Position numbers and translations under genes: made by a program
Notes under the pieces: generated by a model
What the model was told of the DNA's origin: nothing
The model's input: the letters and a program-made list of their open reading frames with translations, nothing else
Databases searched by the model: none
Virus record (IMG/VR): IMGVR_UViG_2737471863_000004
Coordinates: 1 to 49,997 of that record
Direction: 5' to 3' (one strand)
Source of the DNA: a virus
Lineage: Duplodnaviria; Heunggongvirae; Uroviricota; Caudoviricetes
DNA: 49,997 nucleotides
In this document: in pieces, positions 229-18,123 of the stretch
How positions within the stretch are numbered: the first letter of the stretch is position 1
How the letters are laid out: every line of letters starts with the position of its first letter

Positions 229-245
229 ATTGAGGTGGCAAATAT

Positions 246-1106
246 ATGGTTGACAATGTTTTTAAGAAGAAATTGGCATCAATTAAGAACGAACATGTGT
301 CGGTGTTAGATAGTTACAAAGTAAGATCATTTAAAGAGACTCATAGCGACACGGCCTGTATTGTGCGTATTATTGAAATATATTCACTGAATAAGCTGCG
401 AGCTAAAGGTGAAAAGCTGTATTCACTTACGGGGTTAACAGTACCTGATACGGAAACTGTGGCGAATGAGATCAACCTGCTCCTGAGCCGTTATGCCCAG
501 TTGTGTCGTCAGGAAGAGGAAGAGTTATCTTTCCGGCAGCGTGAAGTGACAAATGCGGAAGTTGCATGGAAAAGCACATTCTCAAAAAACGGCGTCAGTA
601 GCATTGCTGAAGCCAAAACGAATAAAATGGGGCATGCTGAACGAGCGGATGCTGAACGGTATTACCATCTGGCTGTTTCCCGGTTGAATGAACAACATAG
701 TCGATTGAGCACGATCAAGCTTTTGCCGGGAGTACTGGCCGATGAAGGAAACTACATTGGGAAGGGAATCGATAAGCGTTTACTGAATATATTTCCTCAA
801 TCCGGCCAGATCCCTGCTGATTTTATTTCTGTATTTAATGACAGTGACGTTGTCCGTGATATTAAATTTATTACTGATGCACTCAAGTCTTTATCTGATT
901 CCGTGAGTGAAATTATTAGTCGTTGTAGCGTTCCAACTGATCGTTATGTATTAAATAACGGTGGAATGGCAAGAGCTATGGCTTACAGGGAGTACTATCG
1001 AGCAGATAATTATGTATTACGTTCAGTCGTAAGTGACCGGGATTATGTTGAGCATGTAATGAAATACAATCTGGTTACTGAGTACAAAAATAAAATCTTT
1101 TCTTAA
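246..1106 (+). CDS. Hypothetical protein of the satellite left operon; possible capsid-assembly partner of the downstream gene (positional inference only)
   Basis: 286-aa ORF with an ATG start 18 bp after alpA, co-oriented, normal GC; no motif recognised. Confidence 0.55.
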   Translation: MVDNVFKKKLASIKNEHVSVLDSYKVRSFKETHSDTACIVRIIEIYSLNKLRAKGEKLYSLTGLTVPDTETVANEINLLLSRYAQLCRQEEEELSFRQREVTNAEVAWKSTFSKNGVSSIAEAKTNKMGHAERADAERYYHLAVSRLNEQHSRLSTIKLLPGVLADEGNYIGKGIDKRLLNIFPQSGQIPADFISVFNDSDVVRDIKFITDALKSLSDSVSEIISRCSVPTDRYVLNNGGMARAMAYREYYRADNYVLRSVVSDRDYVEHVMKYNLVTEYKNKIFS

Positions 1107-1128
1107 ATACTTAAAAAGGTGAAAAACT

Positions 1129-2133
1129 ATGTATGCCTTCAAAACTGAAAGGCCGGACGCAGCACGTCGTTATCATAATAAATTCGTCACTGGCACTAAC
1201 TATCAGGAAGAATCAAACAGACGCTTTGCATTAAGCGAACCTACTGAAAATATACTGCGTACCTCAATTCTGGAATCCGGGTGGCTTATTAAAAATATTA
1301 CCCTACGTGATGTTAACGCCGTGTCAGGTAATGCCGTCAATATTGGTGCCAGTGAACTGTATACCGGACGTGTGGATGGTGGCCGTTTCCACAAAAAAAT
1401 GGCAATCAATGGTACGGAGTTCTTTCTGACAGAGACGGATACCTGCGCCCGGATCAGCTATTCCGATATGTCTCATATTTACCATACCGGCGTGCCGGAT
1501 GAGTTTGAGAAAACGGTTGAGAGCTTTTTTGCCCAGGCATATGCGCTGGACATGCTGCGGGTCGGTTTCAATGGTGTGTCGATTGCAAATACTACAAACC
1601 CGGAAATCAATAAAAAAGGCGAGGATGTCAATATTGGCTGGCATGCACTGGCGAAAGCCTACGGGAACGGAAAGCAAATCATCTCTGAGCCTGTCACTCT
1701 GGGAGAGACTGGCACCTGGAAAAATATTGATGCTCTGGCCAACCATCTGATTACAGAGCTTATTGCTGAGCAGTTTCGTGAAGATCCTCGTCTGGTTGTA
1801 CTGGTTGGGGCAGAGCTGGCAGCACATCAACGCCTGAAGTTATTTAATGCCGCAGACCGCCCGTCTGATGTGAATGCGGCACAGATGGCTACAAGTTCTG
1901 TTGCTGGCCGCTTTGCGTTTATTCCCCCGTTTATGCCGGGTAAGCGTCTGGCAGTAACGACGCTGGATAATCTGCATATTTACACTCAGGCGATAACACG
2001 CTGGTTTCGTGCTGAGTTTGATGATGAAAGCAGTGAATACGTGCATTCCTACCTGCGCAATGAAGGTTATGCACTCGGTGAACCTGAACTGTACGCGGCT
2101 GTCGATGAGAGCGCCCTGACGTTTGCGGATTGA
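1129..2133 (+). CDS. Probable P2 GpN-family major capsid protein homologue
   Basis: 334 aa; blocks GFNGV, NIGW, EDPRLVVLVGAEL and TTLDNLHIY align with my recollection of P2 GpN (GFNGV, VGW, EDPDLVVIVG, ENLSIY). Recalled, not searched. Confidence 0.5.
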   Translation: MYAFKTERPDAARRYHNKFVTGTNYQEESNRRFALSEPTENILRTSILESGWLIKNITLRDVNAVSGNAVNIGASELYTGRVDGGRFHKKMAINGTEFFLTETDTCARISYSDMSHIYHTGVPDEFEKTVESFFAQAYALDMLRVGFNGVSIANTTNPEINKKGEDVNIGWHALAKAYGNGKQIISEPVTLGETGTWKNIDALANHLITELIAEQFREDPRLVVLVGAELAAHQRLKLFNAADRPSDVNAAQMATSSVAGRFAFIPPFMPGKRLAVTTLDNLHIYTQAITRWFRAEFDDESSEYVHSYLRNEGYALGEPELYAAVDESALTFAD

Positions 2134-2146
2134 CTTAGCGACAGAA

Positions 2147-2175
2147 AGACCCGCTCAGAGGCGGGTCTCGTTTAC
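2147..2175 (+). terminator. Possible intrinsic terminator after the capsid-like gene
   Basis: GC hairpin AGACCCGC-loop-GCGGGTCT followed by a weak T stretch (CGTTTAC). Confidence 0.35.
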
Positions 2176-2324
2176 AGCATCAGGAAAAATGAAGAACTAT
2201 TTTTAAGCAGAGGCTTAAGCATGCCAGCGTTAATTAATCCAGGCAATGATCAGTTTTCGGTTATAAATTTCTTGCCTCACCAGGAATGCGCGGGATATAG
2301 TTTAAAGGTTGCCGCAAAATCGGC

Positions 2325-2600
2325 AGCCGGGCGTAGGAACCCGTGTTATCTGAAGGCGATACTACACGCGCCAGGCGTGTTTTTTTGTGTCGCAGCTTTG
2401 ACTCACCTAAAATTTATGGTGTGGTGGCTGATTGTATTTTTTTATTTTTTACGCCACATCATCAGAATTATGGTAGTCCAGGCGGGGCAGCTTTCGGGCT
2501 GGCCGGTATCCTTCAGAGCCGGTATTCCTACCCCCGTCTGGGCTACCACCCATGAGCGTAGGAACTCCGGTGGTAGCGTTACCCGCTATCTGAAGGAGGT
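2325..2600 (+). promoter_or_regulatory. P4-type immunity region: two direct repeats (seqA/seqC-like) flanking a complementary segment (seqB/CI-RNA-like)
   Basis: GCGTAGGAAC...TATCTGAAGG occurs at about 2331..2356 and 2557..2596. Between them, about 2510..2530 (CCTTCAGA...TTCCTAC) is the reverse complement of both halves. A hairpin plus T7 run at about 2369..2387 follows the first repeat. Confidence 0.45.
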
Positions 2601-2607
2601 TGCCATT

Positions 2608-2811
2608 ATGGCTACAGTCCCTGCTTTATCTCACCCTGAATTTACCTTTGTCTTTCTGGCTGTCCGCCGTACAGACCGTGATGCCCGTCCACGCCCTGTG
2701 CGTGTAATCGCAGAATGCGAGCATGCTGCACGCCTTAAACTTGCCACTGAATTTATCCTGAGCTTTGCTGCCCGTATCCCTGTGAAAAGAGCCGGGGAGG
2801 TGGTTGCATGA
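2608..2811 (+). CDS. Small hypothetical protein, 67 aa
   Basis: ATG at 2608 preceded by strong SD AAGGAGG; the SD lies inside the second immunity repeat. The start is internal to a longer track ORF that I reject. Confidence 0.4.
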   Translation: MATVPALSHPEFTFVFLAVRRTDRDARPRPVRVIAECEHAARLKLATEFILSFAARIPVKRAGEVVA

Positions 2812-3044
2812 AATCCATGAATTTTAAGCAAGGCTGCATATTGAGTGAACAGGGGGAGAGTCGTCTGTTACGGGCGGCACTGGCCAGTGAGTTTCTTGCA
2901 GAGGTCTTGTCCGTGCCCACAGTGAATGGAGCGAGAACTGTTTCAGCGGAAGGCGCTGCGGCTTTAGTGGCCTGTATTGCCGAACAACTGGATGGCGTTG
3001 TTAAGGAAACCAGCACAATTAAGGGAGTGATGCGCGATGAATAA
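2808..3044 (+). CDS. Hypothetical protein, 78 aa, upstream of the primase (position analogous to P4 epsilon)
   Basis: ORF with overlapping stop/start coupling to neighbours in the same operon. Confidence 0.45.
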   Translation: MKSMNFKQGCILSEQGESRLLRAALASEFLAEVLSVPTVNGARTVSAEGAAALVACIAEQLDGVVKETSTIKGVMRDE

Positions 3045-3447
3045 TAATCAAAATTTAAAGGCGCATGCTTTACGAACAGCAGTCTTACGCTACTACATTG
3101 CTGATGCATTCATTTCCTTAATGGTGCGTGTTCATAATGAACCTGTTTATATTGAAGATGGCGAACGAATAGAACTCTCCCACGAAAAAGTGGTGAGTAA
3201 TATTATTTACCATATTGAAATGCCGTGGGTGAATGAGTTTGGGGCTGATGCTGGTTGCATACTGGCCGCAGAGAAACTGGAAAAAATGCTTAAACCAGGC
3301 TTTATGTCAGAAAATATTCGCCTGTCAGTTTTTGGTGTCACAGAGATGCGTGAGGTTTACCGGGATATTATTTTCGGAGCACCTGATGGCGAACTACCCG
3401 AAGGTTTTGAATTTGTGAAGCCGGAAGGTCAGGAGGTGCTGCTGTGA
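3037..3447 (+). CDS. Hypothetical protein, 136 aa
   Basis: ORF whose stop overlaps the primase start (operon coupling). Confidence 0.5.
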   Translation: MNNNQNLKAHALRTAVLRYYIADAFISLMVRVHNEPVYIEDGERIELSHEKVVSNIIYHIEMPWVNEFGADAGCILAAEKLEKMLKPGFMSENIRLSVFGVTEMREVYRDIIFGAPDGELPEGFEFVKPEGQEVLL

Positions 3448-6131
3448 AAACACCGTCTGTATCCACGATTTCCGGAGCTGCAATTGGGCGCTGGCCTTAT
3501 ATCCTGTCAGCATTAGGTATTAAAGTACCGTCCGCAGGACATCATGGGGCTTGCCCTGCCTGTGGTGGAAAAGATCGTTTTCGACTGGACGATAAAGCGG
3601 GGCGAGGGACGTGGTTTTGTAATCAGTGCGGTCATGGCGATGGTCTTGATCTGGTTCGTCTGGTGACAGGAAGAAAGATAAAAGAAGTCGCCGGGATGGT
3701 ATCTGAGGCGCTTGCATTACCAGAAATACAGGAGAAGCCCGCATTGCCAGCCAGGAAAAAGGCCGCAGGAAAAGAAGCGGGCGCGGAGCGATATACCAGA
3801 CTCAGACAGCAGTCCTGCAATGGTGAGCCGGTCTATCTGACAAATAAGGGCTTACACGGGTATTCACTTCCCTTGCTGTCACAGCCTTTGAATCTGGCCG
3901 GAATAACATTTTCCACCGGTTCATTACTGCTGCCTTTGACGGATATTTCCGGGAATATTACTGGTGGCCAGCTTATCAATCCTGACGGGGATAAAAGTCT
4001 GCTGCCCGGTAGCCAGCTGTCTGGCGCATTCATTGCCCTGACCGATATACCCGCTGAAACACCTGAACAGGTGATTATCACTGAGGGTTTTGCCACGGCG
4101 CTTACCGTCAGTCTGCTGACTGAAGGATGGATCGTGGCGGCTGTCGCTGCCACCAATTTACTGAAGGTGACGGAGCAGATCCGAAAACGCTGGCCGGAAA
4201 CTCGGATCATTCTGGCCGGAGATAATGATCTGGCTGACGGCAAAGAAAACACCGGGCGTATTCAGGCAGAGAAAGCCGCCAAAGCGGTGGATGGCTGGGT
4301 AACGCTCCCTCCGGTACGCCATAAGGCTGACTGGGATGATTATCGGCAGGAAGTGGGGAAAGAACGGGCGAGAGATGCCTTTCGTGAAGAAATGACGCTG
4401 CATGGCAAAGGGCAGACCCGTTTACCAGAAGGGTTCCGGCTGACAAAAGAATATTTGTGGTACGACAAGCTGGTTAATAAGTCTGATGGTGATACAGAGA
4501 TACGTAATATCAAAATTTGCAGTCCGTTGCGGGTGACGGCAATCACCAGTGATGCTGATGGAAGTAATTACGGGCGTTTGCTGGAATGGGAAGATACCAA
4601 CGGAAACAGCCGTAAATGGGCAATGCCGATGGAGATGCTGGGCGGTAGCGGGGAAGAACTGCGCCGCGTTCTGCTGGTTAACGGGCTTTCTTACATCAAC
4701 ATTAATGGCATGGCCAGAGCATTCCTGATGGAATATATCTCGCTGTGTAAACCGGACAGAAAAGTAACCTGTGTGAATAAAACTGGCTGGCACGGCGGGG
4801 TTTACGTTCTCCAGGATGAAGTGATAGGGCGCGAAGCCCAGTCAGTCATCTTACAAACATCGAGTGTGCAGGGGCGTGATTTTCGTGTCAGCGGCACATC
4901 AGAGGGCTGGCGTGAAAATATAGGCCGTTATTGCATAAAGAATGCCCGTCTTGCCTTTGCGGTGAGTCTGGCATTTGCTGCCCCCCTTCTGAAACTGGTT
5001 GGTATCGGCGGTGGAGGTTATCACCTCAAAGGGGAATCCACAGACGGTAAAACCACGACGATGAAAGTGGCTGCATCAGTATGTGGTGGAACAGATTTCT
5101 GGCATACGTGGCGGGCGACGGGGAATGCCTTAGAAGGAACGGCGAGCCGCCGCAATGATGCCACGCTGATGCTGGATGAAATCCGGGAGGTTGACGGCAG
5201 GGAGGCGGGGAATATCGCTTATATGCTGGCTAACGGGCAGGGCAAAGCCAGAGCCAGAACAGATGGTTCGGTAAGGGAAACCAACCGCTGGAATCTGTTG
5301 TTTCTGTCTACCGGGGAACTGTCACTGGTAGAGCATGCGGCAAGCGCCGGGGAACGTACGTATGCCGGGGTTGAGGTCAGAATGATCCAGATCCCAAGCG
5401 ATTCGGGCAAGTATGGCGTGTTTGAAGAACTTCATGGCTTCAGTAGCGGGAAAACCCTGGCTGAGCATCTTGAGCAGCACGTAGCGCATTATCATGGTGC
5501 ACCATTCCGCGACTGGCTGTATTGCCTGACCGCTGATCTGCCGGAACTGACCAGTCAGGCGAAAGCCTTATTGAAAGAGTATACCCGAAGGCTGACGCCG
5601 GAAAATGCCGGGAATCAGGTTGGCCGGGCTGTTACCCGTTTTGCTCTGGTTGCGATGGCCGGGGAGCTGGCCACAAAAGCGGGCATCACAGGATGGCCGG
5701 AGGGAGAGGCCTTTCGTGCCGCTCAAAGCTGTCTGGCTGCATGGATGGCTGACCGGGGCCATACAGCTAATCAGGAAGATAAAGCGGCACTTGAACAGGT
5801 TCGGGACTTCATGACGCGTAATCAGTTCAGTCGGTTTGCTGACTGGAATGACGACAGGAACCGGCCTGTTTCAATGATGGGATTCAGAAAAGTCGATAAA
5901 GGAGACAACGTGACAGAGCCGGTTGTGACGTTCTACGTTCTCCCGTCAGGCTGGAAGGAGATCTGTAAGGGATTTGACTCGCGTAAGGTGGCCAGGTTGT
6001 GTGTGGACGCGGGCTGGCTGAAACCCGGTGAAGATGGCCGGACGCAAAACAGCATTCGCCTGCCAGAAATAGGGCTTAAACGTGTGTACCAGTTCAATAC
6101 ACAGGTACTGGGAAGCGCTGAACCTGAGTGA
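3444..6131 (+). CDS. P4 alpha-type primase-helicase
   Basis: 895 aa; N-terminal Cys/His zinc-ribbon (CPACGG...CNQCGH) and Walker A GESTDGKTT. Family recognised from memory. Confidence 0.85.
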   Translation: MKTPSVSTISGAAIGRWPYILSALGIKVPSAGHHGACPACGGKDRFRLDDKAGRGTWFCNQCGHGDGLDLVRLVTGRKIKEVAGMVSEALALPEIQEKPALPARKKAAGKEAGAERYTRLRQQSCNGEPVYLTNKGLHGYSLPLLSQPLNLAGITFSTGSLLLPLTDISGNITGGQLINPDGDKSLLPGSQLSGAFIALTDIPAETPEQVIITEGFATALTVSLLTEGWIVAAVAATNLLKVTEQIRKRWPETRIILAGDNDLADGKENTGRIQAEKAAKAVDGWVTLPPVRHKADWDDYRQEVGKERARDAFREEMTLHGKGQTRLPEGFRLTKEYLWYDKLVNKSDGDTEIRNIKICSPLRVTAITSDADGSNYGRLLEWEDTNGNSRKWAMPMEMLGGSGEELRRVLLVNGLSYININGMARAFLMEYISLCKPDRKVTCVNKTGWHGGVYVLQDEVIGREAQSVILQTSSVQGRDFRVSGTSEGWRENIGRYCIKNARLAFAVSLAFAAPLLKLVGIGGGGYHLKGESTDGKTTTMKVAASVCGGTDFWHTWRATGNALEGTASRRNDATLMLDEIREVDGREAGNIAYMLANGQGKARARTDGSVRETNRWNLLFLSTGELSLVEHAASAGERTYAGVEVRMIQIPSDSGKYGVFEELHGFSSGKTLAEHLEQHVAHYHGAPFRDWLYCLTADLPELTSQAKALLKEYTRRLTPENAGNQVGRAVTRFALVAMAGELATKAGITGWPEGEAFRAAQSCLAAWMADRGHTANQEDKAALEQVRDFMTRNQFSRFADWNDDRNRPVSMMGFRKVDKGDNVTEPVVTFYVLPSGWKEICKGFDSRKVARLCVDAGWLKPGEDGRTQNSIRLPEIGLKRVYQFNTQVLGSAEPE

Positions 6132-6157
6132 TTATCGCGTGAGTCTTATTTTTATGA

Positions 6158-6350
6158 GGTAACACTGGTAACAGAGGTAACACCCGTTACTGATGCGGTT
6201 CTTCAGTGTTACCAGTCAAAAATACTGACTGGTAACAGAGGTAACAAAAAATGGTGTGTTACCACGCGTTACCTCTTGATTTTGCTAACTGGTAACAGAT
6301 TAAATCCTTTTAAATCAATAGCGTTACACGTGTTACCAGTGTTACACGTT
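6158..6350. repeat. Iteron array (putative ori/crr-like primase binding sites)
   Basis: At least nine copies of GGTAACA / TGTTACC in both orientations within about 200 bp just after the primase gene; resembles P4 type I iterons (TGTTCACC). Confidence 0.55.
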
Positions 6351-6413
6351 CAGAACAAGAGGTAGGGATCCAAATCCCTTCTTCTGGCGGGCAACAGTAT
6401 AGGGCACAGAACG

Positions 6414-6686
6414 ATGAAGATGATGAGAATGTACTGCCCCACATGTCAGGCAGTAGCACGGATAGGTAAAACAAACAGGAAACACCCACAACTGTACGAT
6501 GTGTACTGCTATTGCTCTAATGTGGAGTGCGGTCACTCGTTTGTGATGAATGTTGCTTTCTCCCATTCCGTTAGTCCAAGCGCGCTGAACGGGCAGGGAA
6601 GGGTTAAAGAGCTGATTGATGCAATTCCACCCGAGGAACGGGAAAAGGCTTTAAAGTTGCTGCTGGCTGCGCAAAAGAATGGGTAA
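6414..6686 (+). CDS. Ogr/Delta-family zinc-finger late-gene activator
   Basis: Motif MYCPTCQ...CYCSNVECGH matches the CxxC...CxxxxC Ogr/Delta pattern; the true start may be one of the internal Met codons. Confidence 0.75.
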   Translation: MKMMRMYCPTCQAVARIGKTNRKHPQLYDVYCYCSNVECGHSFVMNVAFSHSVSPSALNGQGRVKELIDAIPPEEREKALKLLLAAQKNG

Positions 6687-7366
6687 AGTATGCGTCGGGA
6701 ATGGCCGATCTGTTCCCGGAACCTGAACACAGGATTTCAGTTTATACGGTCATAAAATTATTATTTTTCAACTGGTTATCTTCTTCATGTTTCACAAACC
6801 TTCATAAAATCACACACCTAAAATTAATTATCCATTTAATATCATAGAGTTGCGTATTCAGGCCATAGATTCGACGGACAGTAAAACTGAAAAAAAATGA
6901 ATTTCTTTTCATTCTTTTCAGTTCCTGTATCGCAGTACATCTCGAGGACTGGCACGGACTGGCGGTATCGTTTGTAAAAAATCCAGGCTGAAAATTTTTA
7001 GTGATATGAAAACCGCAGGCGGGTGCGGTGTAGTGCCGTTTTGGTCTGTCGAGCGTATATTTTCCCTTTTTCACGATTGCTGCATATCAAAACGAATGTG
7101 CAGATATCAGGCCGTGTCAAACCGTGAATCGTGGAGCCTAAATGCCCAAACTACGTTTGTAGACCTAGCTAGGGGAAGGTTTCCACATATACTGCTACCT
7201 ATCTTCCAGTCGCTGGTGAGGATCAAGGTAAGCTAACTGGTGAACAAGAAAAGTACTTTCGTATCTTGCGTACTCGTTTTTTTTGATTAGTATGTACAGG
7301 TAGTAACTGGATGGTGAGAATTCGTCATAACTTATCAAATTGCATGATGTTTATAGAGTATGAGTA

Positions 7367-8248
7367 ATGAGTCATAATAAAAAGGAATATGCTAAATTTT
7401 TCCGTCGCCCCATTTTTTCATCCTTAGCAAAAGGTAAGGATATTTCGGATTTATTTGGGAGTTTTGATTCTTACTGCTATGAAACACTGTTTTCAAACAA
7501 TGATAATAATGAACATGAGATTTCACTAAGGGATTTATTTACATCATTATATGATTTTTTGCGTCTGAATTATAGAAATGAATATGTTTATAAGACAGCA
7601 CTTGTCAATAAAATAATATTCGGTAAGCACAGCCCAAAAACAAGTTCGTCGTCCATAGAGTTACCAATTAAAAACTCTATAGTGGATGTTGCGGTGTTTA
7701 ATGGTACGTCTACAGCTTACGAGATTAAGACAGAGTATGATTCACCAAAAAGGTTGATTACTCAAGCCCCTGATTATTTGGATGTTTTTGATAAAGTGTA
7801 TATAGTTACACATCCAGAGTATGCAAGTAAATATTGTGCTTTAAATCTCCCCAGAGTGGGAGTTATGGTTTTGAATAAAAAAGATCAATTGAGTGTCATT
7901 AAGGAGGCAGATTCAAATATTGATTATATTAAAAGTGACAGCTTGTTTTCAGTTCTTAGAAAGGAAGAGTTCTTAGCTATAATAGAAGATTACACTTCAA
8001 CTAAAATAAATATGCCTAATGGATTGGTTTATGAATATTGTAAAGAGATATTCATGCAGATGCCATTAAACATAGCAAATAAATACTTTATCTCTGCTAT
8101 GAAAAAAAGATGTAACGACAAAGTTTTTTTGGATTATATTTATTCTCTTCCAGCATGTTTACGTGTTTTAGGTTATGCAACACCATTATCAAGAAAGCAA
8201 AAAGAATTCATCATGAATTTGATGGATGTAAAAATTAAAATTTGTTGA
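7367..8248 (+). CDS. Cargo protein A, 293 aa, with a putative PD-(D/E)xK nuclease-like core
   Basis: Very AT-rich codon usage versus flanks. Motif IVDVAVFNGTSTAYEIKTE (D107, E119, K121) fits the restriction-endonuclease-like pattern. No signal peptide or TM segment seen. Confidence 0.7.
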   Translation: MSHNKKEYAKFFRRPIFSSLAKGKDISDLFGSFDSYCYETLFSNNDNNEHEISLRDLFTSLYDFLRLNYRNEYVYKTALVNKIIFGKHSPKTSSSSIELPIKNSIVDVAVFNGTSTAYEIKTEYDSPKRLITQAPDYLDVFDKVYIVTHPEYASKYCALNLPRVGVMVLNKKDQLSVIKEADSNIDYIKSDSLFSVLRKEEFLAIIEDYTSTKINMPNGLVYEYCKEIFMQMPLNIANKYFISAMKKRCNDKVFLDYIYSLPACLRVLGYATPLSRKQKEFIMNLMDVKIKIC

Positions 8249-8269
8249 TATCCTCAGGAGTTGTAAGTT

Positions 8270-9220
8270 ATGTATAGCCCATATTTGTATGCGAGAAGTA
8301 CAGAGTTATTATGCCTTAGGGACCTCGTTGCGAAGGGAGTTAGCCTAAATGGTCTGCTACCAATTTTAGAACCAATTAACGTCAATACGAGAAATTTATT
8401 AACATGTTTAAATGTTTGGAATTCTGACATAATTGTTATCCTTAATCCTTATCAGGAAGATTTTTCTTCACACAATAACGTCTTAACTTTAAATCAAAAT
8501 TTATCAAGTGTATTAACAAATAAAAACAATATCATCTCTGGATATCTTATTCAGCCCAATACAACGATTAATGATATTAATAATTGGTTGAATGCTAACT
8601 TAAATAGACGAGTTGCACTTCTATATGATAATCCATCATTATCCAACTCTGATATTCAGTTGTTGGCGACAAATCAATTGATTAGTTATCATGTTGTTTT
8701 AAATAATAAAATGCTTCCTAATCAGTGCGCTCTTCTTCCTTTGTCGAAGTTAATTATTATTAGCGATAACTTTAGAAAGTTAGCAAAAAATGCTGATTAT
8801 AATGGGCCGGAACTTTTCACGCACGCACATCAATTCGTGGGACAAAATTACTTAGGATTTGGCGATTATACAATTACTGGCCAGGTACTAGATCTTGGAG
8901 GTGGTCAACCTTCTGCTGTTGCCGCACATTTGGTGTTCAAGAATTTACAAGCGAATACAGTTTGGATTCGTCATTTTGTATCAAGCAACACGCAACGAGG
9001 AAGTTCAAATGTTACTGCAAAATTTTTAGATGTTTCAGATCAAATTACAAATCTTGTTCCCCAACATCCAACCCAGTTTGGCAGCAACATTGGTCTTAAC
9101 TATTATTATTACAATAGTCAACCAACTGTAAGGCATTTCCCTGGGTTGCCAAAAAACAAACAGTATCAAATTACTCACCATATTTGTTTCATGCTGGATT
9201 TAATAGCAGGTCGTATTTAA
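8270..9220 (+). CDS. Cargo protein B, 316 aa, function unknown
   Basis: AGGAG RBS 11 nt upstream; 21 bp after cargo A, so likely an operon. AT-rich; no motif recognised. Its 3' end overlaps the integrase 3' end by 21 bp, convergently. Confidence 0.7.
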   Translation: MYSPYLYARSTELLCLRDLVAKGVSLNGLLPILEPINVNTRNLLTCLNVWNSDIIVILNPYQEDFSSHNNVLTLNQNLSSVLTNKNNIISGYLIQPNTTINDINNWLNANLNRRVALLYDNPSLSNSDIQLLATNQLISYHVVLNNKMLPNQCALLPLSKLIIISDNFRKLAKNADYNGPELFTHAHQFVGQNYLGFGDYTITGQVLDLGGGQPSAVAAHLVFKNLQANTVWIRHFVSSNTQRGSSNVTAKFLDVSDQITNLVPQHPTQFGSNIGLNYYYYNSQPTVRHFPGLPKNKQYQITHHICFMLDLIAGRI

Positions 9221-10423
9221 TAAGCTAGCGTACCATTCCATCATTACTTGTCGATCTTTAATATATTGCGCATGATTGTAAGTACCTCGAATAGAGTTCT
9301 TATCAACATGCGCAAGCTGCATTTCAATCCAGGCACTTTCAAACCCATGCTCATGCAAGATGGTGCTCATGGTATGCCTGAAACCGTGACCCGTTAACCG
9401 ACCGTGATAACCCAGTAGTTTTATCACTTTGTTGATGCTGGCTTCGCTCATTGGTTTCCTGACGTCATTTCGGCCAGGGAAAACGAGGCTGTAATTCCCT
9501 GTTATTTCTTGCAGCTTTTTCAGGATATTGATCGCCTGAGTTGATAACGGAACCAGATGGGGGCGGCGTTTCTTCATCCGTTCTTTGGGGATCTCCCATA
9601 AGGCATTATCTAAATCAAACTCAGCCCATTCCGCTGCACGTAGTTCAATTGTTCGCACGCCTGTTAGCATCAACAGCTGCGTGGCGTATTTGGTAACTAA
9701 ACTGCCCTGATAGTTATCCAGAGCATTAACGAACTCGGGCAACTCGCTTTCAGTCAGGAACGGGAAGTGTTGGGTTTTAGGTTTGTTGAGTGCGATAGCT
9801 AAATCGGGTGCAAAATTATACTTTGCTCTACCAGTGGCAACAGCATAACGAAGCACTTCACCACAGCGGCGGCGGATCTTACTGGTTTGCTCTAGCGCAC
9901 CTCTTTTCTCTATTTTTTGCAGGACGGTTAGCAGTTCTAATGGTTCAATCTGCTCAATTGGGCGCTGGCCGATAAAAGGAAAAATATCCTTTTCCATACA
10001 ATTGAGAACCTCTTTTGCATAACCCTCTGACCAGGTGGCTTTTTTCGATGAGTGCCATTCTCTGGCCACAGACTCAAAGCTGTTCTCATGCGCGAACTGC
10101 AAAGCAATCTTATCTGCTTTTCTGGCTTCACTTGGGTTTATCCCTTTGGCTAACATCGAACGCGCTTCATCACGTTTGGTACGTGCCTGTGCCAACGACA
10201 CATCGCCATATACGCCAAAGGAAATCATCTTAGGCTTACCTGCAAAGCGATAGCGAAAACGCCAGCCTTTACTGCCCGCTGTGTCGATCAGGAGTGATAG
10301 CCCCATACCATCGTTAAGCGTATAGGGTTTGTCCTTCGGTTTTGCTCTTTTTATTTGGATGTCAGATAGCAGCATGTGTATAGAAAAAAGATCGAACTCA
10401 GTTATACACAATGTTATACGCAA
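9200..10423 (-). CDS. Tyrosine integrase, IntS/P4 family, of the satellite
   Basis: N-terminal DKPYTLNDGMGLSL arm-binding motif and C-terminal HGFRH...RGTYNHAQY catalytic motifs; clear similarity across the length to IntS at 47596..48753. The likely true start is the internal Met at about 10375. Confidence 0.9.
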   Translation of the reverse strand: MRITLCITEFDLFSIHMLLSDIQIKRAKPKDKPYTLNDGMGLSLLIDTAGSKGWRFRYRFAGKPKMISFGVYGDVSLAQARTKRDEARSMLAKGINPSEARKADKIALQFAHENSFESVAREWHSSKKATWSEGYAKEVLNCMEKDIFPFIGQRPIEQIEPLELLTVLQKIEKRGALEQTSKIRRRCGEVLRYAVATGRAKYNFAPDLAIALNKPKTQHFPFLTESELPEFVNALDNYQGSLVTKYATQLLMLTGVRTIELRAAEWAEFDLDNALWEIPKERMKKRRPHLVPLSTQAINILKKLQEITGNYSLVFPGRNDVRKPMSEASINKVIKLLGYHGRLTGHGFRHTMSTILHEHGFESAWIEMQLAHVDKNSIRGTYNHAQYIKDRQVMMEWYASLLNTTCY

Positions 10424-10534
10424 AGATGTATAGATTCCATTAGAAATAATGGTACTTTGCTGGACGAGTATAAGGAGATGATATCAGTTAAAACAGTGAG
10501 TTATGGAATTAATTGGACTTAGTGAGAAGTGTTC

Positions 10535-10550
10535 ATGGTGTCCCCTGCAG
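10535..10550. repeat. att core copy (ATGGTGTCCCCTGCAG) at the junction between the two elements
   Basis: Exact 16-bp identity to 48914..48929, the 3' end of argW plus 1 nt. It lies between torI and the satellite integrase. Confidence 0.7.
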
Positions 10551-10623
10551 ACATCTACTTGAGGCGGCAGGGGATTGATTGGAATGGTGTTTTTTAGATG
10601 TGAAAAATATTTTACCCGCTATT

Positions 10624-10824
10624 TTACCCATTGGCGCGGCTTAAGAGCTTATTTTTGAATTCACAATGGTCACGATATAACCATCTTGCTCGTCCGTGGA
10701 TAACTTTGGCTTTAGGCAGGTCGCCGGACTTAATCCGGTCATAGATGAAGGTCTTACCGAAGCCAGTATCAGCCATGATGAATTTCAAATCAACCAGTGA
10801 ATCAGGTTGTAGTTCGTGTTGCAT
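10624..10824 (-). CDS. torI: TorI-type excisionase (recombination directionality factor)
   Basis: 66 aa, MQHELQPDSLVDLKFIMADTGFGKTFIYDRIKSGDLPKAKVIHGRARW..., matching the E. coli KplE1 TorI as I recall it; located next to the att core. Confidence 0.8.
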   Translation of the reverse strand: MQHELQPDSLVDLKFIMADTGFGKTFIYDRIKSGDLPKAKVIHGRARWLYRDHCEFKNKLLSRANG

Positions 10825-10843
10825 GAGTGCTATCTCCGAATAT

Positions 10844-10859
10844 GGAATCGAACCTGCAA
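10844..10859. repeat. 16-bp argW-derived fragment (GGAATCGAACCTGCAA), not a functional tRNA
   Basis: Identical to argW 48929..48944 (T-arm region), but the flanks do not fold into a tRNA; separated from the att core by the torI gene. Confidence 0.5.
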
Positions 10860-10946
10860 ATCAGGCAATAAAAAGCCGCATTGATGCAGCAATGGTAGGT
10901 CTGGATATCTTGAGAAATGAACAGGCCTCATCGAGTGTGAGGCGGG

Positions 10947-11291
10947 TTAGTCCTTGCGTAGCTCGCTGATTCTTCTGTAAGTCTCTGGTGCTTTGTTCCC
11001 GTACGCCTTCATTTCAGACTTCAACAGAGCAACGAGTGAATCCCATTCGTTGAGGATTCCTTTGAATGCCGGAACGCGCTTTGCAACCTTGTCGAATGAA
11101 TCTCTGATTTCTGGAATCTGCTCAACAAGTGCAACGCATCGTCGGAAATCGGCTGCGTCATGTGGAGCGCCGAAGTGATGACCATAGATATTCTTTTTCA
11201 GTCCACATGCGATTGAGGCAAGAGTTGCGCTACTGATGCCAACATCGCCAGTCGATTGCCATTTCAAAACCTTCATAGCCAAATCTGACAT
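10947..11291 (-). CDS. Hypothetical early-left protein, 114 aa
   Basis: ORF co-oriented with the leftward early operon. Confidence 0.5.
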   Translation of the reverse strand: MSDLAMKVLKWQSTGDVGISSATLASIACGLKKNIYGHHFGAPHDAADFRRCVALVEQIPEIRDSFDKVAKRVPAFKGILNEWDSLVALLKSEMKAYGNKAPETYRRISELRKD

Positions 11292-11311
11292 TTCTTGTCT
11301 CCATAAAACAA

Positions 11312-11365
11312 AACTCGCCGTAGCGAGTTCAGATAAAAGAAAACCCGCACTCGGCGGGTTCGCAT
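11312..11365 (-). terminator. Two tandem intrinsic terminators on the minus strand
   Basis: Minus-strand hairpins CCCGCCGAGTGCGGG followed by TTTTCTTTT, and CTCGCTACGGCGAG followed by TTTTGTTTT. Confidence 0.5.
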
Positions 11366-11380
11366 TCGTTCAAATTGCGT

Positions 11381-11662
11381 TTACTTCTTGGCGTTCTGTT
11401 CATCCATATCGATATACCATGGGTTGCTTCCCTTGGGCAGGTTTAACGACTGCTCGCGATAGTATCTGACGCGCTCCATGAAATACTCGCGTGAGTGCTC
11501 AGGTTGCTCTCGTGCTACCTGCTCAGTGATAACAGGTATGTTAAGGCGCTCTCTGTACGCCACGCCTGATGCTGCAAGGTCAACGTTTACCTTGTTCTGT
11601 TTTTCTTTCGATTGCTCGGCGATGTTATGCCTGGCATTGTCAACCCGCCTCCTTCTGAACAT
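11381..11662 (-). CDS. Hypothetical early-left protein, 93 aa
   Basis: ORF in the leftward operon. Confidence 0.45.
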   Translation of the reverse strand: MFRRRRVDNARHNIAEQSKEKQNKVNVDLAASGVAYRERLNIPVITEQVAREQPEHSREYFMERVRYYREQSLNLPKGSNPWYIDMDEQNAKK

Positions 11663-12005
11663 AACGGTTATAAATCAGTCCCTGAGGGCCATAAGGAAGA
11701 GGGATGTGCTACTCCTCTGGTTCAGAAACTATCCATTCCCCGGCCATCTCCGCTGGAGAGGTAATGATAAGTTGTTTGCTAATAAAAGGACCACTCCTCT
11801 CAACAACAAGCTTACCATCTTCATTAATAAAAGCGTGGATGTCAGGTGTACTTCCACACTTGGTGATGCAGCGTTTGAACATTTTTTGTCTCCCCATTTT
11901 ATGGACGGGGTCATTATAACACATTGAAATATAGTAATATTTGACGTAGATTCCTTTTGGTCTATGAGCGATTTTTTTATGCCTTTAAGTTATAAAAGCT
12001 TGTTT

Positions 12006-12594
12006 TCATCCCCCATCTTGCTGCGGTGCTACTATTGAAAAGTGCTCACACCCTTTAGCCCAAATAGTTTTGATAGTTGTCCAACTGACTGGAACCTTGA
12101 TTTCGATTCTCCCGCTGCAGTCACAAGTTTCGCAATCATCATCACCAAAACATTCCGGGCAGTTAGTGAATACTGTTTCTGAAAACTCACCAGAAAGTGC
12201 ACCTTTAGCGCCGTTCTCAATAGTTAGTCTCTTCGGCACCATGACCCAACCATCCGGAGTTACCGGAGAGTTGCCCGACAGCTCGTTCAACTTGTAAGTT
12301 TGGCTTACAGGTTCGGCTTCCAGTTCTGCTATGCGCTTTTTTGCTGCTTCCAGCTCAACACGCAGCCTCCCAACCGTTAGTGCAATATCCTCGTTCTCCT
12401 GGTCGCGGTGTTTGATGTATTGCTGGTTTCTTTCCCGTTCATCCAGAAGCGCCAGCACAATGTGTGGCGTTATCAGGGACTCAAATTCGGCAACAGCTTG
12501 CTCGCCTCGCTTGTAATTCTTAATCCCACCTAAATCTTTCGCGTTCTGCGCCGCCTCACGCAGTGCCTGATAGACAATCTCGCTCACTGGCTGC
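12006..12594 (-). CDS. Hypothetical protein with coiled-coil and Cys-rich C-terminus (CPECFGDDDCETCDC)
   Basis: Probable GTG start with GGAGG RBS, internal to track ORF 12006..12743. Confidence 0.45.
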
Positions 12595-12888
12595 CTCCTT
12601 TGCTGGGCTTTCGAACTTCTGAGTGGTTGTATCAAACTCAAGCAACTTAACCACGTCATCAAACAGGACGTAAGCACCATCAGAATCTTCTGCCATATCA
12701 GCGCCACAATCCTGACCGCACGAGTCACAACCATCCATATCAAGCTCGTATCGCTTCAGGTTTGCGATATTTGATAAATTCAGCGCCAGTACAGCCAGGT
12801 CATAAACCTCTTCGGCAGTGACATCGCTGTTCAGTCCCATTTCATGGCGATATATGATTTTTCCTACTCGTTGTTTTGTGATTGTCAT
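12556..12888 (-). CDS. Hypothetical early-left protein, 110 aa
   Basis: ORF in the leftward operon; no motif recognised. Confidence 0.45.
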   Translation of the reverse strand: MTITKQRVGKIIYRHEMGLNSDVTAEEVYDLAVLALNLSNIANLKRYELDMDGCDSCGQDCGADMAEDSDGAYVLFDDVVKLLEFDTTTQKFESPAKEAASERDCLSGTA

Positions 12889-13364
12889 TTTTGCTCACCT
12901 CCCTGTTCTTCCAGAAAAATACGCATAGCCTCAAGCATCTCTTTGGTGTCATACGGTGACAACTTGTCACGCAGGATGTATTCAATGCTGTTAATGAACT
13001 TGCGGATTGCTTTGCGTTCAATTTCAGCCAGGAAAGCATCGGTGGCTGGGGTGTCTGATTGCAGAGACTTTGCGCGATAGTCATTCCACCCTCTTGCATA
13101 CATGGGATTAACTAGCACTCCATCTTTTACGCAATATGCCTGCCCTCCACGGTTGATAAACTTGATTTCGTCCATAGCGCCAGACTTCAGCCCCGCATTC
13201 TCCGCTGCCAGCGCCGCGCACTTGGCCTCTGCTTCAGCAAATTTACGCACCAGATATTCAGCGTTTGTTTCGTTAACCTTTAAATCACATGGGATGCATT
13301 TACCTTTCAGAAAACCATCCATCTCAATTAGTGACATTTGTTTCATTTCTTCCCACTCCGCCAC
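12885..13364 (-). CDS. Hypothetical early-left protein, 159 aa
   Basis: ORF whose start overlaps the upstream stop. Confidence 0.5.
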
Positions 13365-13517
13365 ATCGCATTCAGATATTTGTTTTGATTCACTGATGGA
13401 AAAGAATTTCTCTTAAGCAATTCCTCTCTCGATGGCATTGGCTTTACGTGTTGGCGAATAATCATTTCTGCCGGAAGAATGCCGGGATTGTATGCAAGTC
13501 CTCTCATGGTAAATTCC

Positions 13518-13811
13518 TCAGTCATTACTGATAGCGCCATAGCGTGAGCGGTAATTACGCAGGCGTGGGTCAATTTCTGGGAAGTTGGTATATGTGGCTT
13601 TGCGGAATGGTCGGATTGATGTCTGGTAAATTCGCTCGCGTTCTTCTTTCTCTGCAAGCCATATACAATGACGAAATTCCTTTTCCTCTTTCGTTTCCTG
13701 AGGTAGCGACATTATCCAGTCGTAGTTTTTCCTGAATTTATCCAGCACCTCCGATACGGAATTGCCGGAACAGCGGCGTGGGTCATCCGCACCATACAGA
13801 GGCGCTGGCAT
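13518..13811 (-). CDS. Hypothetical early-left protein, 97 aa
   Basis: ORF with charged, protein-like composition; overlaps an alternative small ORF 13343..13657 in another frame. Confidence 0.4.
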
Positions 13812-13834
13812 AATGGAATCCTTATGTTGCTACT

Positions 13835-14218
13835 TTAGAAGGGAATTGAATCGTCGTATTCAGGATGATTTTGATGATTGCTACTTTGCTGCTGTTGGCT
13901 GTTTCCTGAAGTTGCAAATCCAATCTTTGCATTCAGTAATTCAAGAGTGATTGATTGACCATTTTGCCCCTGATAAACATCAACCCTGATGTTTTCTCCG
14001 GTAATTTCTACAATGCCTCCTTCAACCAGAACGCTACGGTAGTAATCCGCTTGCGCTCCCGGCTTGGCAAATACAACGGCGCTGTAGTTTGTCCATTCTT
14101 TCTTTTTTGTCTGGCGATCGTAATACTGAACGCCAGCACGGATGTTGAATCCGATATTTTCCCCGGCCTGAAACTCTCTTGCGGGCTTGTTTAGTCTTAC
14201 AGTAATCGAATGCGCCAT
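13835..14218 (-). CDS. Phage SSB-like single-stranded DNA-binding protein
   Basis: About 127 aa from internal Met MAHSITV; acidic C-terminal tip EYDDSIPF resembles the SSB tail; TAATG stop/start overlap with erf. Confidence 0.55.
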   Translation of the reverse strand: MAHSITVRLNKPAREFQAGENIGFNIRAGVQYYDRQTKKKEWTNYSAVVFAKPGAQADYYRSVLVEGGIVEITGENIRVDVYQGQNGQSITLELLNAKIGFATSGNSQQQQSSNHQNHPEYDDSIPF

Positions 14219-14832
14219 TAAGCAGCCGCTCCTTCTAATTCGTCTCGTCTGATGTTGTAAACGTCCTGCGCTTTGTGCTGCTCCGGTGTGCCTTCGAGCA
14301 TCTTCCACGCTTTGGCGAACGCCTGTTTAAGCTCTTCCACGGTGTTTTTCTGCAATGCTGCGTCAGTGAATGCTTTTAGAACCTGTTCAGGTGTAGGTGA
14401 TGGTTTTGATGGTTTTGATTGCTTTGCTGCTGCGTTCTGCTGATGTTTATGCTCGTCTGTATCTGCATCTTTCGCATCATCTATTCCGAACAAACCATTA
14501 AGGCAATACTTGCGCGCATAAGAGCTTGTAGCTCCCGTAACTTGTGCAGAATCCATTCCTTTCTTGCTTTCTTCCTCTCTTGCGAGAGCGGTTGCCGTAT
14601 GGCTGTTTTCGCCATCGGTAATAGTTGCCGTGGCTTTCACGTAATACCGATCACCAATCAACACAACTTCATCGCTGATTGATAAAAACAGGCCATTCAG
14701 TAACGGCTTAACACCCTCAAGAATGTCTTCGCAGCTTCTGTATTTATATTTGCCGAATGAGTTGTATTGATTCTTTGGCGCGTTCAGATTCTCCTGAATA
14801 GCTGCCAGTCTTGCATAAAATTCTTTGCTCAT
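14218..14832 (-). CDS. erf: Erf single-strand annealing recombinase (P22 Erf-like)
   Basis: MSKEFYARLAAIQENLNAPKNQYNSFGKYKYRSCEDILEGVKPLL... matches P22 Erf as I recall it. Confidence 0.8.
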   Translation of the reverse strand: MSKEFYARLAAIQENLNAPKNQYNSFGKYKYRSCEDILEGVKPLLNGLFLSISDEVVLIGDRYYVKATATITDGENSHTATALAREEESKKGMDSAQVTGATSSYARKYCLNGLFGIDDAKDADTDEHKHQQNAAAKQSKPSKPSPTPEQVLKAFTDAALQKNTVEELKQAFAKAWKMLEGTPEQHKAQDVYNIRRDELEGAAA

Positions 14833-14933
14833 ATGTTTGTTCTCAGAATGGACATTCCCCAAGGAAATAACGCTGATTTAATACTTCGACTCGGGACAAA
14901 TTAAGGCATACCCGCATTCCTTCGCGGTCGCCA

Positions 14934-15122
14934 TTATGGCGATACCAGAGAGCTTTCTGCGTGTACATGCGTCTCTGTAACTTGCTCTCCTTCACTGTGG
15001 TTGCAAGTGACATGAATATCTCCTTCGTTACCGATTAATTCTTTCATATGACGAATGAATTCTTCGTCTGACCAGTTATCTGTAAAACTCATGGACGGCC
15101 TTGTTGTTTCAAAATATCCCAA
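14934..15122 (-). CDS. Small hypothetical early-left protein
   Basis: ORF only. Confidence 0.35.
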   Translation of the reverse strand: MGYFETTRPSMSFTDNWSDEEFIRHMKELIGNEGDIHVTCNHSEGEQVTETHVHAESSLVSP

Positions 15123-15364
15123 AGCTTTTCGAGCAAGCTTTTCATTCTTGGTTGTTTAAAGTCTGCTCCGGTTAAAATATTTTTTCGTGAATGCTGTACC
15201 GATAAAATCGGGTTGAAAGGGCGAACCGATGCCGCCCCTGCAATAGCGAACTGTTGCATAGGATGCTCCTTCTGTTTGATTGCATAACGAAAACGCCTCG
15301 AGTGAAGCGTTATTGGTATGCATATAAAAAGGCCCTCACACTGGAGGGCAAAGAAGATTTCCAA
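15089..15364 (-). CDS. Small hypothetical early-left protein (likely shorter, from internal Met MQQFAIAG)
   Basis: ORF only. Confidence 0.35.
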   Translation of the reverse strand: MEIFFALQCEGLFICIPITLHSRRFRYAIKQKEHPMQQFAIAGAASVRPFNPILSVQHSRKNILTGADFKQPRMKSLLEKLWDILKQQGRP

Positions 15365-15444
15365 TAATCAGAACAAGTCGGCTCCTGTTTAGTTACGAGC
15401 GACATTGCTCCGTGTATTCACTCGTTGGAATGAATACACAGTGC

Positions 15445-15645
15445 TTATTCGCGAGCTTTGAGCATTGCGTCTGCAAACTTATATGCAGCGCTTGCTGCAT
15501 AATTAACAGCTCCATCAGAATCATTATCGATAATCGATGGATTGCTAATCATTGCTTGCATAGCCTTTGCCGCGAAGTAATCACGTAATGTCGCATCACT
15601 TGCCATTTCTGGGCGTTTGATATCTGCTTCGTAAAACTCGCACAT
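15445..15645 (-). CDS. Small hypothetical early-left protein, 66 aa
   Basis: ORF; stop adjacent to the next gene's start. Confidence 0.4.
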   Translation of the reverse strand: MCEFYEADIKRPEMASDATLRDYFAAKAMQAMISNPSIIDNDSDGAVNYAASAAYKFADAMLKARE

Positions 15646-15965
15646 TACTCACCTCCCAGAGCCTTGATGATTGCTGCAAAACCTTTATTAACAGCTCCAT
15701 ACCATTCTGGATATGTTGTCGTTGTTCTATTTTTGGATTGCTTAAGTAATAACTGAAGTGCTTCGAGAAGGTCAGGTGCTGCCGCTATTAGATTGGCATC
15801 TTCAATGCATTGAACTTCCTCACAGATTGCAATATACGAACGCCAGCCTGCGCCATTTTCAAGAGAGTCTGCCTGGATGATTTTAATCTCATCGCCATCC
15901 ATCATTATTTCCCACTTACCTTCAGTACCTTTAAATTCCATGTTAGCCTCTGTTGTTTGTGCCAA
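15645..15965 (-). CDS. Hypothetical early-left protein, 106 aa
   Basis: ORF only. Confidence 0.45.
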   Translation of the reverse strand: MAQTTEANMEFKGTEGKWEIMMDGDEIKIIQADSLENGAGWRSYIAICEEVQCIEDANLIAAAPDLLEALQLLLKQSKNRTTTTYPEWYGAVNKGFAAIIKALGGE

Positions 15966-15978
15966 AAATAAAGGCCGA

Positions 15979-16302
15979 CTATGCGGCCTTATCTACATTT
16001 CTGAACCAAACGCAGATCGGACCGTCTTCTGTATCGTGAATCGAACCGACAAACCATCCTTCTCCATCTGGCATGCTTGGCTCCCATCCACTGATGTTTG
16101 GATTCCCATCTTCAAAATACGCGTCAATTACCGTTTGATTGTTGTCGTTTTCCATTTCAACAATTGATGATTCAATGCCATGCTGCTTGCAGAAAGATCT
16201 GAACTCATCAACTGAAATTACCTCTCTATCCCCAAACAGGTTGGCGTATTCTGGGTGCGTCCAGTAGCCATCCTCGCTTCGCTCTACTACTAATGCTTCC
16301 AT
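15979..16302 (-). CDS. Hypothetical early-left protein, 107 aa, acidic
   Basis: ORF only. Confidence 0.45.
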   Translation of the reverse strand: MEALVVERSEDGYWTHPEYANLFGDREVISVDEFRSFCKQHGIESSIVEMENDNNQTVIDAYFEDGNPNISGWEPSMPDGEGWFVGSIHDTEDGPICVWFRNVDKAA

Positions 16303-16310
16303 ATCTCACC

Positions 16311-16637
16311 TCAAATAAGTGGTTTGCTGCCTAATTTCATTTTCTGGCGACCAACACAAGTCACACCCATTTCACTGCGTGGCTTGCTGTACCATGTGCG
16401 CTGATTCTTGCGCTCAATACGTTGCAGGTTGCTTTCAATCTGTTCGTGGTATTCAGCCAGCACCGTAAGGTCTATCGGATTCAGTGCGCTTTCTACTCGT
16501 GATTTCGGTTTGCGATTCAGCGAGAGAATAGGGCGGTTAACTGGTTTTGCGCTTACCCCAACCAACAGGGGATTTGCTGCTTTCCATTGAGCCTGTTTCT
16601 CTGCGCGACGTTCGCGGCGGCGTGTTTGTGCATCCAT
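16311..16637 (-). CDS. N: Antitermination protein N (lambda N-like)
   Basis: From the internal Met: MDAQTRRRERRAEKQAQWKAANPLLVGVSAKPVNRPILSLNRKPKSR... is near-identical to lambda N as recalled (includes the arginine-rich motif). Confidence 0.9.
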   Translation of the reverse strand: MDAQTRRRERRAEKQAQWKAANPLLVGVSAKPVNRPILSLNRKPKSRVESALNPIDLTVLAEYHEQIESNLQRIERKNQRTWYSKPRSEMGVTCVGRQKMKLGSKPLI

Positions 16638-18115: not shown

Positions 18116-18123
18116 GACATTCC

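Follow-up and report, generated by a model that had tools for sequence, protein, structure and literature searches.

A gop-less gene pair of cII-like and beta-like families as exchangeable cargo of a P4-related satellite at argW in Escherichia coli: a candidate anti-phage module

Locus and gene pair

The window analyzed here, the 49,997 nucleotides of IMG/VR record IMGVR_UViG_2737471863_000004 (positions 1 to 49,997), is a piece of the Escherichia coli chromosome at the argW/dsdA-csc locus and includes most of a P4-related satellite, in which two genes, here termed A and B, lie beside the integrase gene and form the subject of this report. Gene A (7367..8248, + strand) encodes a 293-residue cII-like protein with the features of a PD-(D/E)xK nuclease, belonging to NCBIfam family sce7726 and Pfam family PF26915 (Phage_P4_cII). 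Gene B (8270..9220, + strand) encodes a 316-residue TIM-barrel-like protein of the sce7725 family that appears to be a remote homologue of P4 beta (PF14350). An earlier note on this DNA, made from the sequence without database searches, had described the pair as two co-oriented open reading frames (ORFs) of 293 and 316 amino acids with a 21-bp gap and an AGGAG ribosome-binding site before the second, and the ORF coordinates and the sequence agree with this description. Read off the sequence, the ribosome-binding site lies at 8257..8261 (+ strand) within the 21-bp spacer, 8 nt before the ATG of B.

The pair differs in composition from the rest of its element, with a guanine-plus-cytosine (GC) content of 0.325 versus 0.485 for satellite positions 1..6686 and 0.462 for int, and a third-position GC (GC3) of about 0.27 versus 0.53 for the primase gene. 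The low-GC cargo block proposed earlier therefore stands for the pair itself but not for its suggested start near 6700, as positions 6687..7044 are conserved satellite backbone. The absence of transmembrane segments was also borne out, a Kyte-Doolittle scan (19-residue mean) finding no hydrophobic segment in either protein (maxima of 1.17 for A and 1.13 for B). Whether the pair belonged to a catalogued family had been left as a question, and it can now be answered: A is NCBIfam sce7726 and Pfam Phage_P4_cII, and B is NCBIfam sce7725.

Protein families

Protein A matches the sce7726 model NF033832 with 175.6 bits (E = 1e-51) against a cut-off of 70. It also matches the PADLOC cll model PDLC02989 at 1.2e-18, a model that P4 cII itself matches at 3e-113 and that thus represents P4 cII. 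BLASTP aligned A with P4 cII at 9e-11 over a region spanning the catalytic motif, P4 cII is itself annotated as an sce7726 family member, and PF26915 is carried by all of the A homologues. A direct Pfam search returned no significant match for A or B in a copy of the database that did not contain PF26915, and a sequence search of the PDB found no relative of either protein. The first 64 or so residues of A form an N-terminal extension that is absent from P4 cII.

The nuclease core of A (residues ~94-180, window positions 7646..7906, + strand) contains E98, D107, E119, and K121, all four invariant in an alignment of 37 diverse A homologues. In the predicted model, from which the order of strands and helices was taken, this E...D...ExK motif sits on a restriction-endonuclease-like alpha/beta core, and the fold matches restriction enzymes, NucS, Can2, and Cap4. 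The earlier note had recognized D107, E119, and K121 as a PD-(D/E)xK-like arrangement; the three residues are at the positions it gave, with E98 preceding them, and the invariance of the motif and the modeled fold both favor that call. On the evidence of motif and model, we assign A to the PD-(D/E)xK nuclease superfamily as a member with an intact catalytic motif and predicted nuclease activity.

Protein B matches the sce7725 model NF033831 with 242.2 bits against a cut-off of 60, covering model positions 1-311 of 312. It has no direct match to Pfam, PF14350 included, or to the PADLOC beta and PD-Lambda-2_C models, and a BLASTP comparison with P4 beta was not significant. PF14350 (Beta_protein) is matched weakly by 11 of 40 B-family members, and an hhalign comparison of the B-family alignment with the P4 beta-family alignment gave a probability of 87% (E = 4e-6) over 246 columns. 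The motifs YxPxLxxRxxE, P(I/L), and GD(Y/H) are common to both families. The comparison of family profiles points to a remote homology between B and P4 beta.

A confident predicted model of B has the (beta/alpha) topology of a TIM barrel, and the best Foldseek match is the TIM-barrel nuclease UVDE, with Apn1/Endo IV further down the list. Nine polar residues (E12, E34, N59, D199, H220, H235, S238, K297, and H304) are invariant in the family, which suggests an enzyme or a specific binding site, and several of them are placed at or just past strand C-termini in the style of barrel enzymes. The family is large and uniform, its 1,492 clusters at 50% identity (E <=1e-3) all consisting of full-length, single-domain proteins of ~310 amino acids. 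The number and placement of the invariant residues, the UVDE match, and the single-domain uniformity of the family would all suit a scheme in which A detects a DNA structure or DNA of the phage, and in which B acts catalytically as the effector, by depletion or modification of a metabolite or nucleotide, or by DNA cleavage in the manner of UVDE and Endo IV. We regard this allocation of roles as quite improbable and favor the opposite one, with B as the sensing partner and A as the effector, as set out in the Discussion.

Conservation and distribution of the pair

The co-occurrence check proposed in the earlier note was run, and the pair proved to be near-obligate in unrelated genomes, being present at 51 of 52 close loci. 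A scan with the A alignment, restricted to one genome per species, yielded 80 loci, comprising 56 close homologues of A and 24 more distant ones. Among the close homologues, 51 have a co-oriented B gene immediately downstream, four are located at contig ends, and one has no B; this orphan nuclease of Hydrogenophaga sp. 2FB (locus L038, 7845..8834) is the only close homologue with downstream sequence that lacks a partner. The close A-B loci are distributed over Proteobacteria, Acidobacteria, Actinobacteria, Bacteroidota, Firmicutes, Mycoplasma, and Cloacimonadota. Approached from the other gene, a PF26915 gene adjoins B in all five B-family loci sampled (Pyrinomonadaceae, Paraburkholderia, Pseudomonas, and two metagenome contigs). 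The 24 distant relatives of A, mostly from Firmicutes, are accompanied by a partner gene of ~350 amino acids that is convergent in most cases. Three of these partners were compared with Pfam, and two matched Beta_protein at 1.7e-24 and 3e-17, the third falling below threshold (5e-4, 20 bits versus a cut-off of 27).

Within E. coli, the satellite backbone was found in 450 of 5,426 complete genomes, and 421 of these 450 have the A-B cargo at >=99% identity. In total the pair is present in 422 E. coli genomes, or ~8% of the complete ones, where RefSeq uses the sce7726 and sce7725 names. It is a single near-clonal allele, at least 99% identical throughout, in one chromosomal copy per genome and never on plasmids. 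Several names of strains with the pair indicate sequence type 131 (ST131), and the prevalence may largely reflect one successful lineage. Three variants of the locus were seen: in strain THO-015, IS1 is inserted in B after approximately codon 144 and A is intact and identical (locus L120, 2070..3797); in AVS0155, IS1 lies between B and int (locus L121, 3086..3783); and NR2550 retains only the last 19% of the pair.

Outside E. coli, the A-B family is found on plasmids of Shinella, Rhizobium, Moraxella, and Ralstonia. P4-type integrases adjoin the pair in six loci, and a distantly related satellite (L112), with an integrase and a primase each 39% identical to those described here, carries a 32%-identical A-B pair beside its integrase.

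P4 cII was named for a P4 plaque phenotype. This history might hint at a role of the pair in the life cycle of the satellite itself, such as lysogeny control, helper exploitation, or helper interference, rather than in general immunity, and such a role would be consistent with the location of the pair next to int in this satellite, in the distant satellite L112, and in Morganella (L013). We consider it very unlikely, since most members of the family are found outside satellites, among housekeeping genes in Acidobacteria, in defense islands of Paraburkholderia, on plasmids of Alphaproteobacteria and Moraxella, and in Firmicutes and Bacteroidota. Sister satellites also function with entirely different cargo, as described below, and the P4 non-essential region is dispensable for the P4 life cycle (PMC9122126).

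The cargo slot

The earlier note placed the pair in a variable slot beside the satellite integrase, and comparison with sister satellites confirms that the slot exists. These satellites have backbones 95-98% identical to the one in the window and occupy the same argW site, and at the same position they carry other cargo: a UG17 reverse transcriptase with a SLATT protein (RT_UG17, 1e-163; RTasSLATT, 8e-56), PARIS (AriA, 5e-29; AriB, 2e-12), or a PDC-M28C-like ATPase. The limits of the cassette were determined by blastn against sister satellites L093, L094, and L095. Homology among the satellites ends at window positions 7043-7045 and restarts at 9231-9259, within the 3'-terminal part of int, which defines a low-GC cassette at ~7045..9230 that is not common to satellites with other cargo. 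The cassette starts with 322 bp ahead of gene A and takes in both genes and the final codons of int. The ogr/Delta-int slot is a genuine hotspot of exchange.

The genes B and int share 21 bp at their 3' ends, and because the right exchange boundary is within int, a cassette swap also replaces the C-terminal codons of the integrase. In each of the three cargo types examined, the final gene of the cargo shares ~20 bp with the int stop region (window 9200..9260; L093, 10906..10925; L094, 11246..11267). The cassette thus resembles the PARIS and DRT cargo of the sister satellites in its use of the ogr/Delta-int slot on the same argW backbone and in the overlap of its last gene with int, while its proteins are unrelated to AriA and AriB and to the UG17 reverse transcriptase with SLATT.

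To the left of the cassette, the spacer of ~360 bp that follows ogr (6687..7044) is 92-96% conserved among satellites with different cargo and has no Rfam match. It ends in a terminator-like hairpin (7012..7039) that was detected by a pattern scan scored on both strands and that marks the end of the backbone just before the left cassette boundary. Around the cassette, no Rfam family, flanking repeats, or convincing promoter were found. Two ORFs upstream of A (6802..7074 and 7006..7236) were considered as Gop-like small genes and set aside; they are unannotated and lie mostly in the conserved backbone.

The host satellite

The satellite is bounded by attachment (att) repeats that copy the 3' end of argW. 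The right-hand repeat, an exact 15-mer at 10536..10550 (+ strand), lies between int and torI, a second copy is found at 48915..48929 within tRNA-Arg, and a third is ~465 bp to the left of the window start (locus L002); the chance expectation for an exact recurrence of this 15-mer is 0.09. These repeats bound an element of 11.0 kb that begins ~465 bp left of the window and has its positions 1..10550 inside it. The only tRNA gene in the window is tRNA-Arg(CCT) at 48915..48989, and the argW site is occupied by a tandem array with three copies of the att core, consisting of the satellite, a lambdoid, P22-like prophage extending from torI to IntS (~10551..48914), and tRNA-Arg(CCT). In sister strains the satellite is located directly at argW, with no prophage.

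The P4-type tyrosine integrase gene at 9200..10375 (- strand), annotated as such in RefSeq and containing the Pfam domains Arm-DNA-bind_3, Phage_int_M, and Phage_integrase, is assigned to the satellite on the grounds that a separate integrase gene, at 47596..48789 next to tRNA-Arg, belongs to the prophage. Together with the att repeat between int and torI, this upholds the view of the earlier note that the integrase beside the pair is the satellite's own.

The gene order of the satellite is AlpA, a hypothetical gene, a P2-family capsid homologue, an Ash/Icd-like gene, two small hypothetical genes, a Zn-ribbon/Toprim/DUF927 primase, Ogr/Delta, A, B, and the P4-type integrase. The Ogr/Delta-like zinc-finger gene (6414..6686, + strand; PF04606, 5e-14) closes the series of backbone genes to the left of the cargo slot. 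The earlier description of the satellite as P4-like holds in part: Pfam identifies the hallmark integrase, alpha-type primase, Ogr/Delta activator, and AlpA, but the satellite ORFs within the window include no member of the Psu or Sid families, and the P2/P4 cos 19-mer has no match within the window at <=3 mismatches, the leftmost 465 bp of the element lying outside in both cases. There is also a homologue of the P2-family major capsid protein (1129..2133; PF05125, 1e-66). By its gene content, the satellite appears to be P4-related but not canonical, and it may represent a type that brings its own capsid gene instead of a Sid-type size-determination protein. The Morganella relative L013 has a GPO-scaffold-like ORF in addition.

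Comparison with known systems

The closest described system is gop-beta-cII of P4 (Rousset et al. 2022, PMC9122126), which protects E. coli against lambda and P1 and in which gop and beta have been interpreted as toxin and antitoxin (PMC9122126). Cell death by this system is set off by the coliphage gene orf184 (bioRxiv 10.1101/2023.04.06.535777). The two loci have in common a cII-type PD-(D/E)xK protein (sce7726/PF26915), what is probably a beta-type protein (in the case of B by remote homology), and a low-GC position in the integrase-proximal cargo region of a satellite. They differ in that this cassette contains no gop gene: no match to the PADLOC gop model was found among the cassette proteins, the part of the cassette that precedes A has no ORF that is annotated or conserved, and five homologous two-gene loci sampled elsewhere also lack gop. 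They differ as well in gene order, which in P4 is gop, beta, and a convergent cII, whereas here A is followed by a co-oriented B after a 21-bp spacer. B is matched neither by PF14350 nor by the PADLOC beta model and is placed in a different family, sce7725. Finally, anti-phage activity has been demonstrated for the P4 system and is a candidate function of the pair described here. Because gop is missing and the gene order is different, we treat this locus as distinct from gop-beta-cII proper.

The second relative is PD-lambda-2 (Vassallo et al. 2022, PMC9519451), a toxin-antitoxin-like system with a beta-family protein that is required for its defense; P4 beta matches the PD-Lambda-2_C model at 8e-14. 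Unlike PD-lambda-2, the cassette has no HigB-like or HTH-peptidase gene, neither of its proteins matching PD-Lambda-2_A or PD-Lambda-2_B at E <=1 and no further genes being present in the cassette. As for the NCBIfam families sce7726 and sce7725 (NF033832 and NF033831), the two proteins lie far above the curated cut-offs and their genes are adjacent, but these are family names only, to which the papers found attach no function, mechanism, or link to defense. Literature searches on PF26915 and the NF03383x models found nothing. In the part of the Rousset 2022 supplementary tables that was available, the RefSeq accessions and peptides of the pair do not appear, which is uninformative, not least as the hotspot treated there is psu-to-int, an interval that this satellite does not have. 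The genes thus already have names and annotations, with A appearing as a clear member of the P4 cII family and B outside the current beta models. Judged by sequence relationships, the pair is most likely a minimal, gop-less, co-oriented variant of the gop-beta-cII superfamily rather than something entirely new.

Both relatives bear on a different account of the pair, namely that it is a toxin-antitoxin or addiction module in which A is a constitutively toxic nuclease restrained by B, as Gop would be by beta, and which stabilizes the satellite or island. Beta has been said to act as an antitoxin to Gop (Ghisotti 1990, cited in PMC9122126), PD-lambda-2 is toxin-antitoxin-like, and the pair is compact and mobile, is found on plasmids and islands, and has RES, HigB, or HipA genes nearby in some loci. 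In PD-lambda-2, however, the beta-like component C was not needed to neutralize toxicity and was required for defense (PMC9519451), so that this protein is not the antitoxin of that system. Likewise, as THO-015 is viable with IS1 in B and A intact, A alone appears to be tolerated at native expression, and the slot of the sister satellites holds bona fide defense systems and not classical toxin-antitoxin pairs. We therefore consider an addiction role unlikely, while noting that toxin-antitoxin function and abortive-infection defense are not mutually exclusive. The anti-phage module discussed below remains the preferred account of the pair.

Neighboring genes and third components

Elsewhere, the neighbors of the pair include Hachiman, type I and BglII restriction-modification systems, SLFN helicases, Lamassu, ThsA/SIR2, and PDC-S25. 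In 9 of 51 loci, the gene directly downstream of B encodes a RES-domain protein of ~330-375 amino acids (loci L045, L050, L054, L056, L060, L064, L066, L067, and L068; also L007, 5940..6911). This three-gene variant was found in Bacteroidota, Firmicutes, Mycoplasma, and Cloacimonadota, and a RES-domain gene abutting B has also been reported in an integrative element of P. aeruginosa (PMC9394441).

Other third genes accompany the more distant beta and cII relatives. Variants from Firmicutes encode an HTH-M78 protein matching PD-Lambda-2_B (3e-31) together with a nuclease matching the cll model, and loci in Firmicutes and Actinobacteria have the arrangement HTH-M78 (ImmA/IrrE-like), beta gene, and convergent cII-like nuclease (L069, 5927..6997; L071, 7836..10725; L079, 7731..10845). 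Judging from gene content, this architecture bridges PD-lambda-2 and gop-beta-cII. The P4 order recurs at canonical beta loci of Methylibium and P. aeruginosa, with a small ORF in the gop position, beta, and a convergent cII. In P. aeruginosa (L011 and L012, 1..7859), the trio has as neighbors a HigB/HTH pair and genes of a Pf-like filamentous prophage (DUF2523, Phage_Coat_B, DUF5447). The third gene is thus swappable, being Gop, a RES-domain protein (nine loci), or an HTH-M78 protein, and this kind of modularity is typical of defense systems.

Discussion

We interpret the cassette as a two-gene anti-phage module that is carried as exchangeable cargo in an integrase-proximal hotspot and that represents a gop-less branch of the gop-beta-cII superfamily, a reading to which we assign a probability of about 0.62. 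That the pair has a defensive function of some kind is likely. How the work is divided between the two proteins is more tentative, and our proposal for it stands somewhat short of even odds. In this scheme B, as a beta-like TIM barrel, would be an infection sensor or licensing enzyme, and A, probably inactive without B, would be the effector that cuts nucleic acid. B is cast as a sensor or activator rather than as an antitoxin because the corresponding component C of PD-lambda-2 is needed for defense and not for neutralization, and because the beta proteins are not the toxic part of either studied relative. The IS1 insertion in B of THO-015, which leaves A intact and tolerated, points the same way. 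The choice between direct immunity and abortive infection as the outcome is similarly tentative.

Several points weigh against this interpretation. The homology between B and beta is remote (87% probability, ~20% identity), PADLOC v2.0.0 contains no model that matches B and would not report a system at this locus, and the low GC of the pair is a sign of foreign origin only. A cII-like gene is not part of PD-lambda-2 as it was described in E. coli, and in the published work on gop-beta-cII the role of cII has not been separated from those of gop and beta. We found no paper that reports a function for the sce7725/sce7726 pair or treats the pair as its topic. Some pair loci, in Acidobacteria, are located among housekeeping genes, and the census of neighbors was made without a matched background. 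The prevalence of 8% in E. coli may be due to lineage expansion rather than to selection for the cargo, and the argument from IS1 comes from one strain and is silent on expression level.

A broader and more doubtful extension is that a beta-like barrel with a cII-like nuclease is the ancestral, self-sufficient core of a widespread defense superfamily, with ~1,500 clusters in most of the bacterial phyla sampled, from which gop-beta-cII and PD-lambda-2 would be derived by the addition of toxins such as Gop, RES, HigB, or HTH-peptidase proteins. On this account, a nuclease would be licensed by the barrel protein, an infection sensor or enzyme of a new kind. To our knowledge, a sensor-effector logic of this type, with a barrel-licensed nuclease, has not yet been described for any defense system.

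Even if the pair is not defensive, the sharp boundaries of the cassette and its replacement by PARIS or DRT in sister satellites reveal a second hotspot of satellites, non-canonical and located at argW. If it does defend, it would be a compact two-gene system missed by current annotation, one that occurs in many phyla and, within E. coli, in ~8% of the complete genomes; it escapes the defense tools of 2023, PADLOC v2 showing an orphan cll match only. The P4 locus would then be reread as a conserved unit of beta and cII to which Gop is an add-on, rather than as a gop/beta toxin-antitoxin pair with cII as a bystander, and PD-lambda-2 would be joined to the same superfamily. A TIM-barrel protein of uncharacterized chemistry would act at the sensing step, for which the trigger orf184 is known in the P4 relative. 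The main value of the finding would lie in this putative conserved core of beta and cII, which may link gop-beta-cII and PD-lambda-2.

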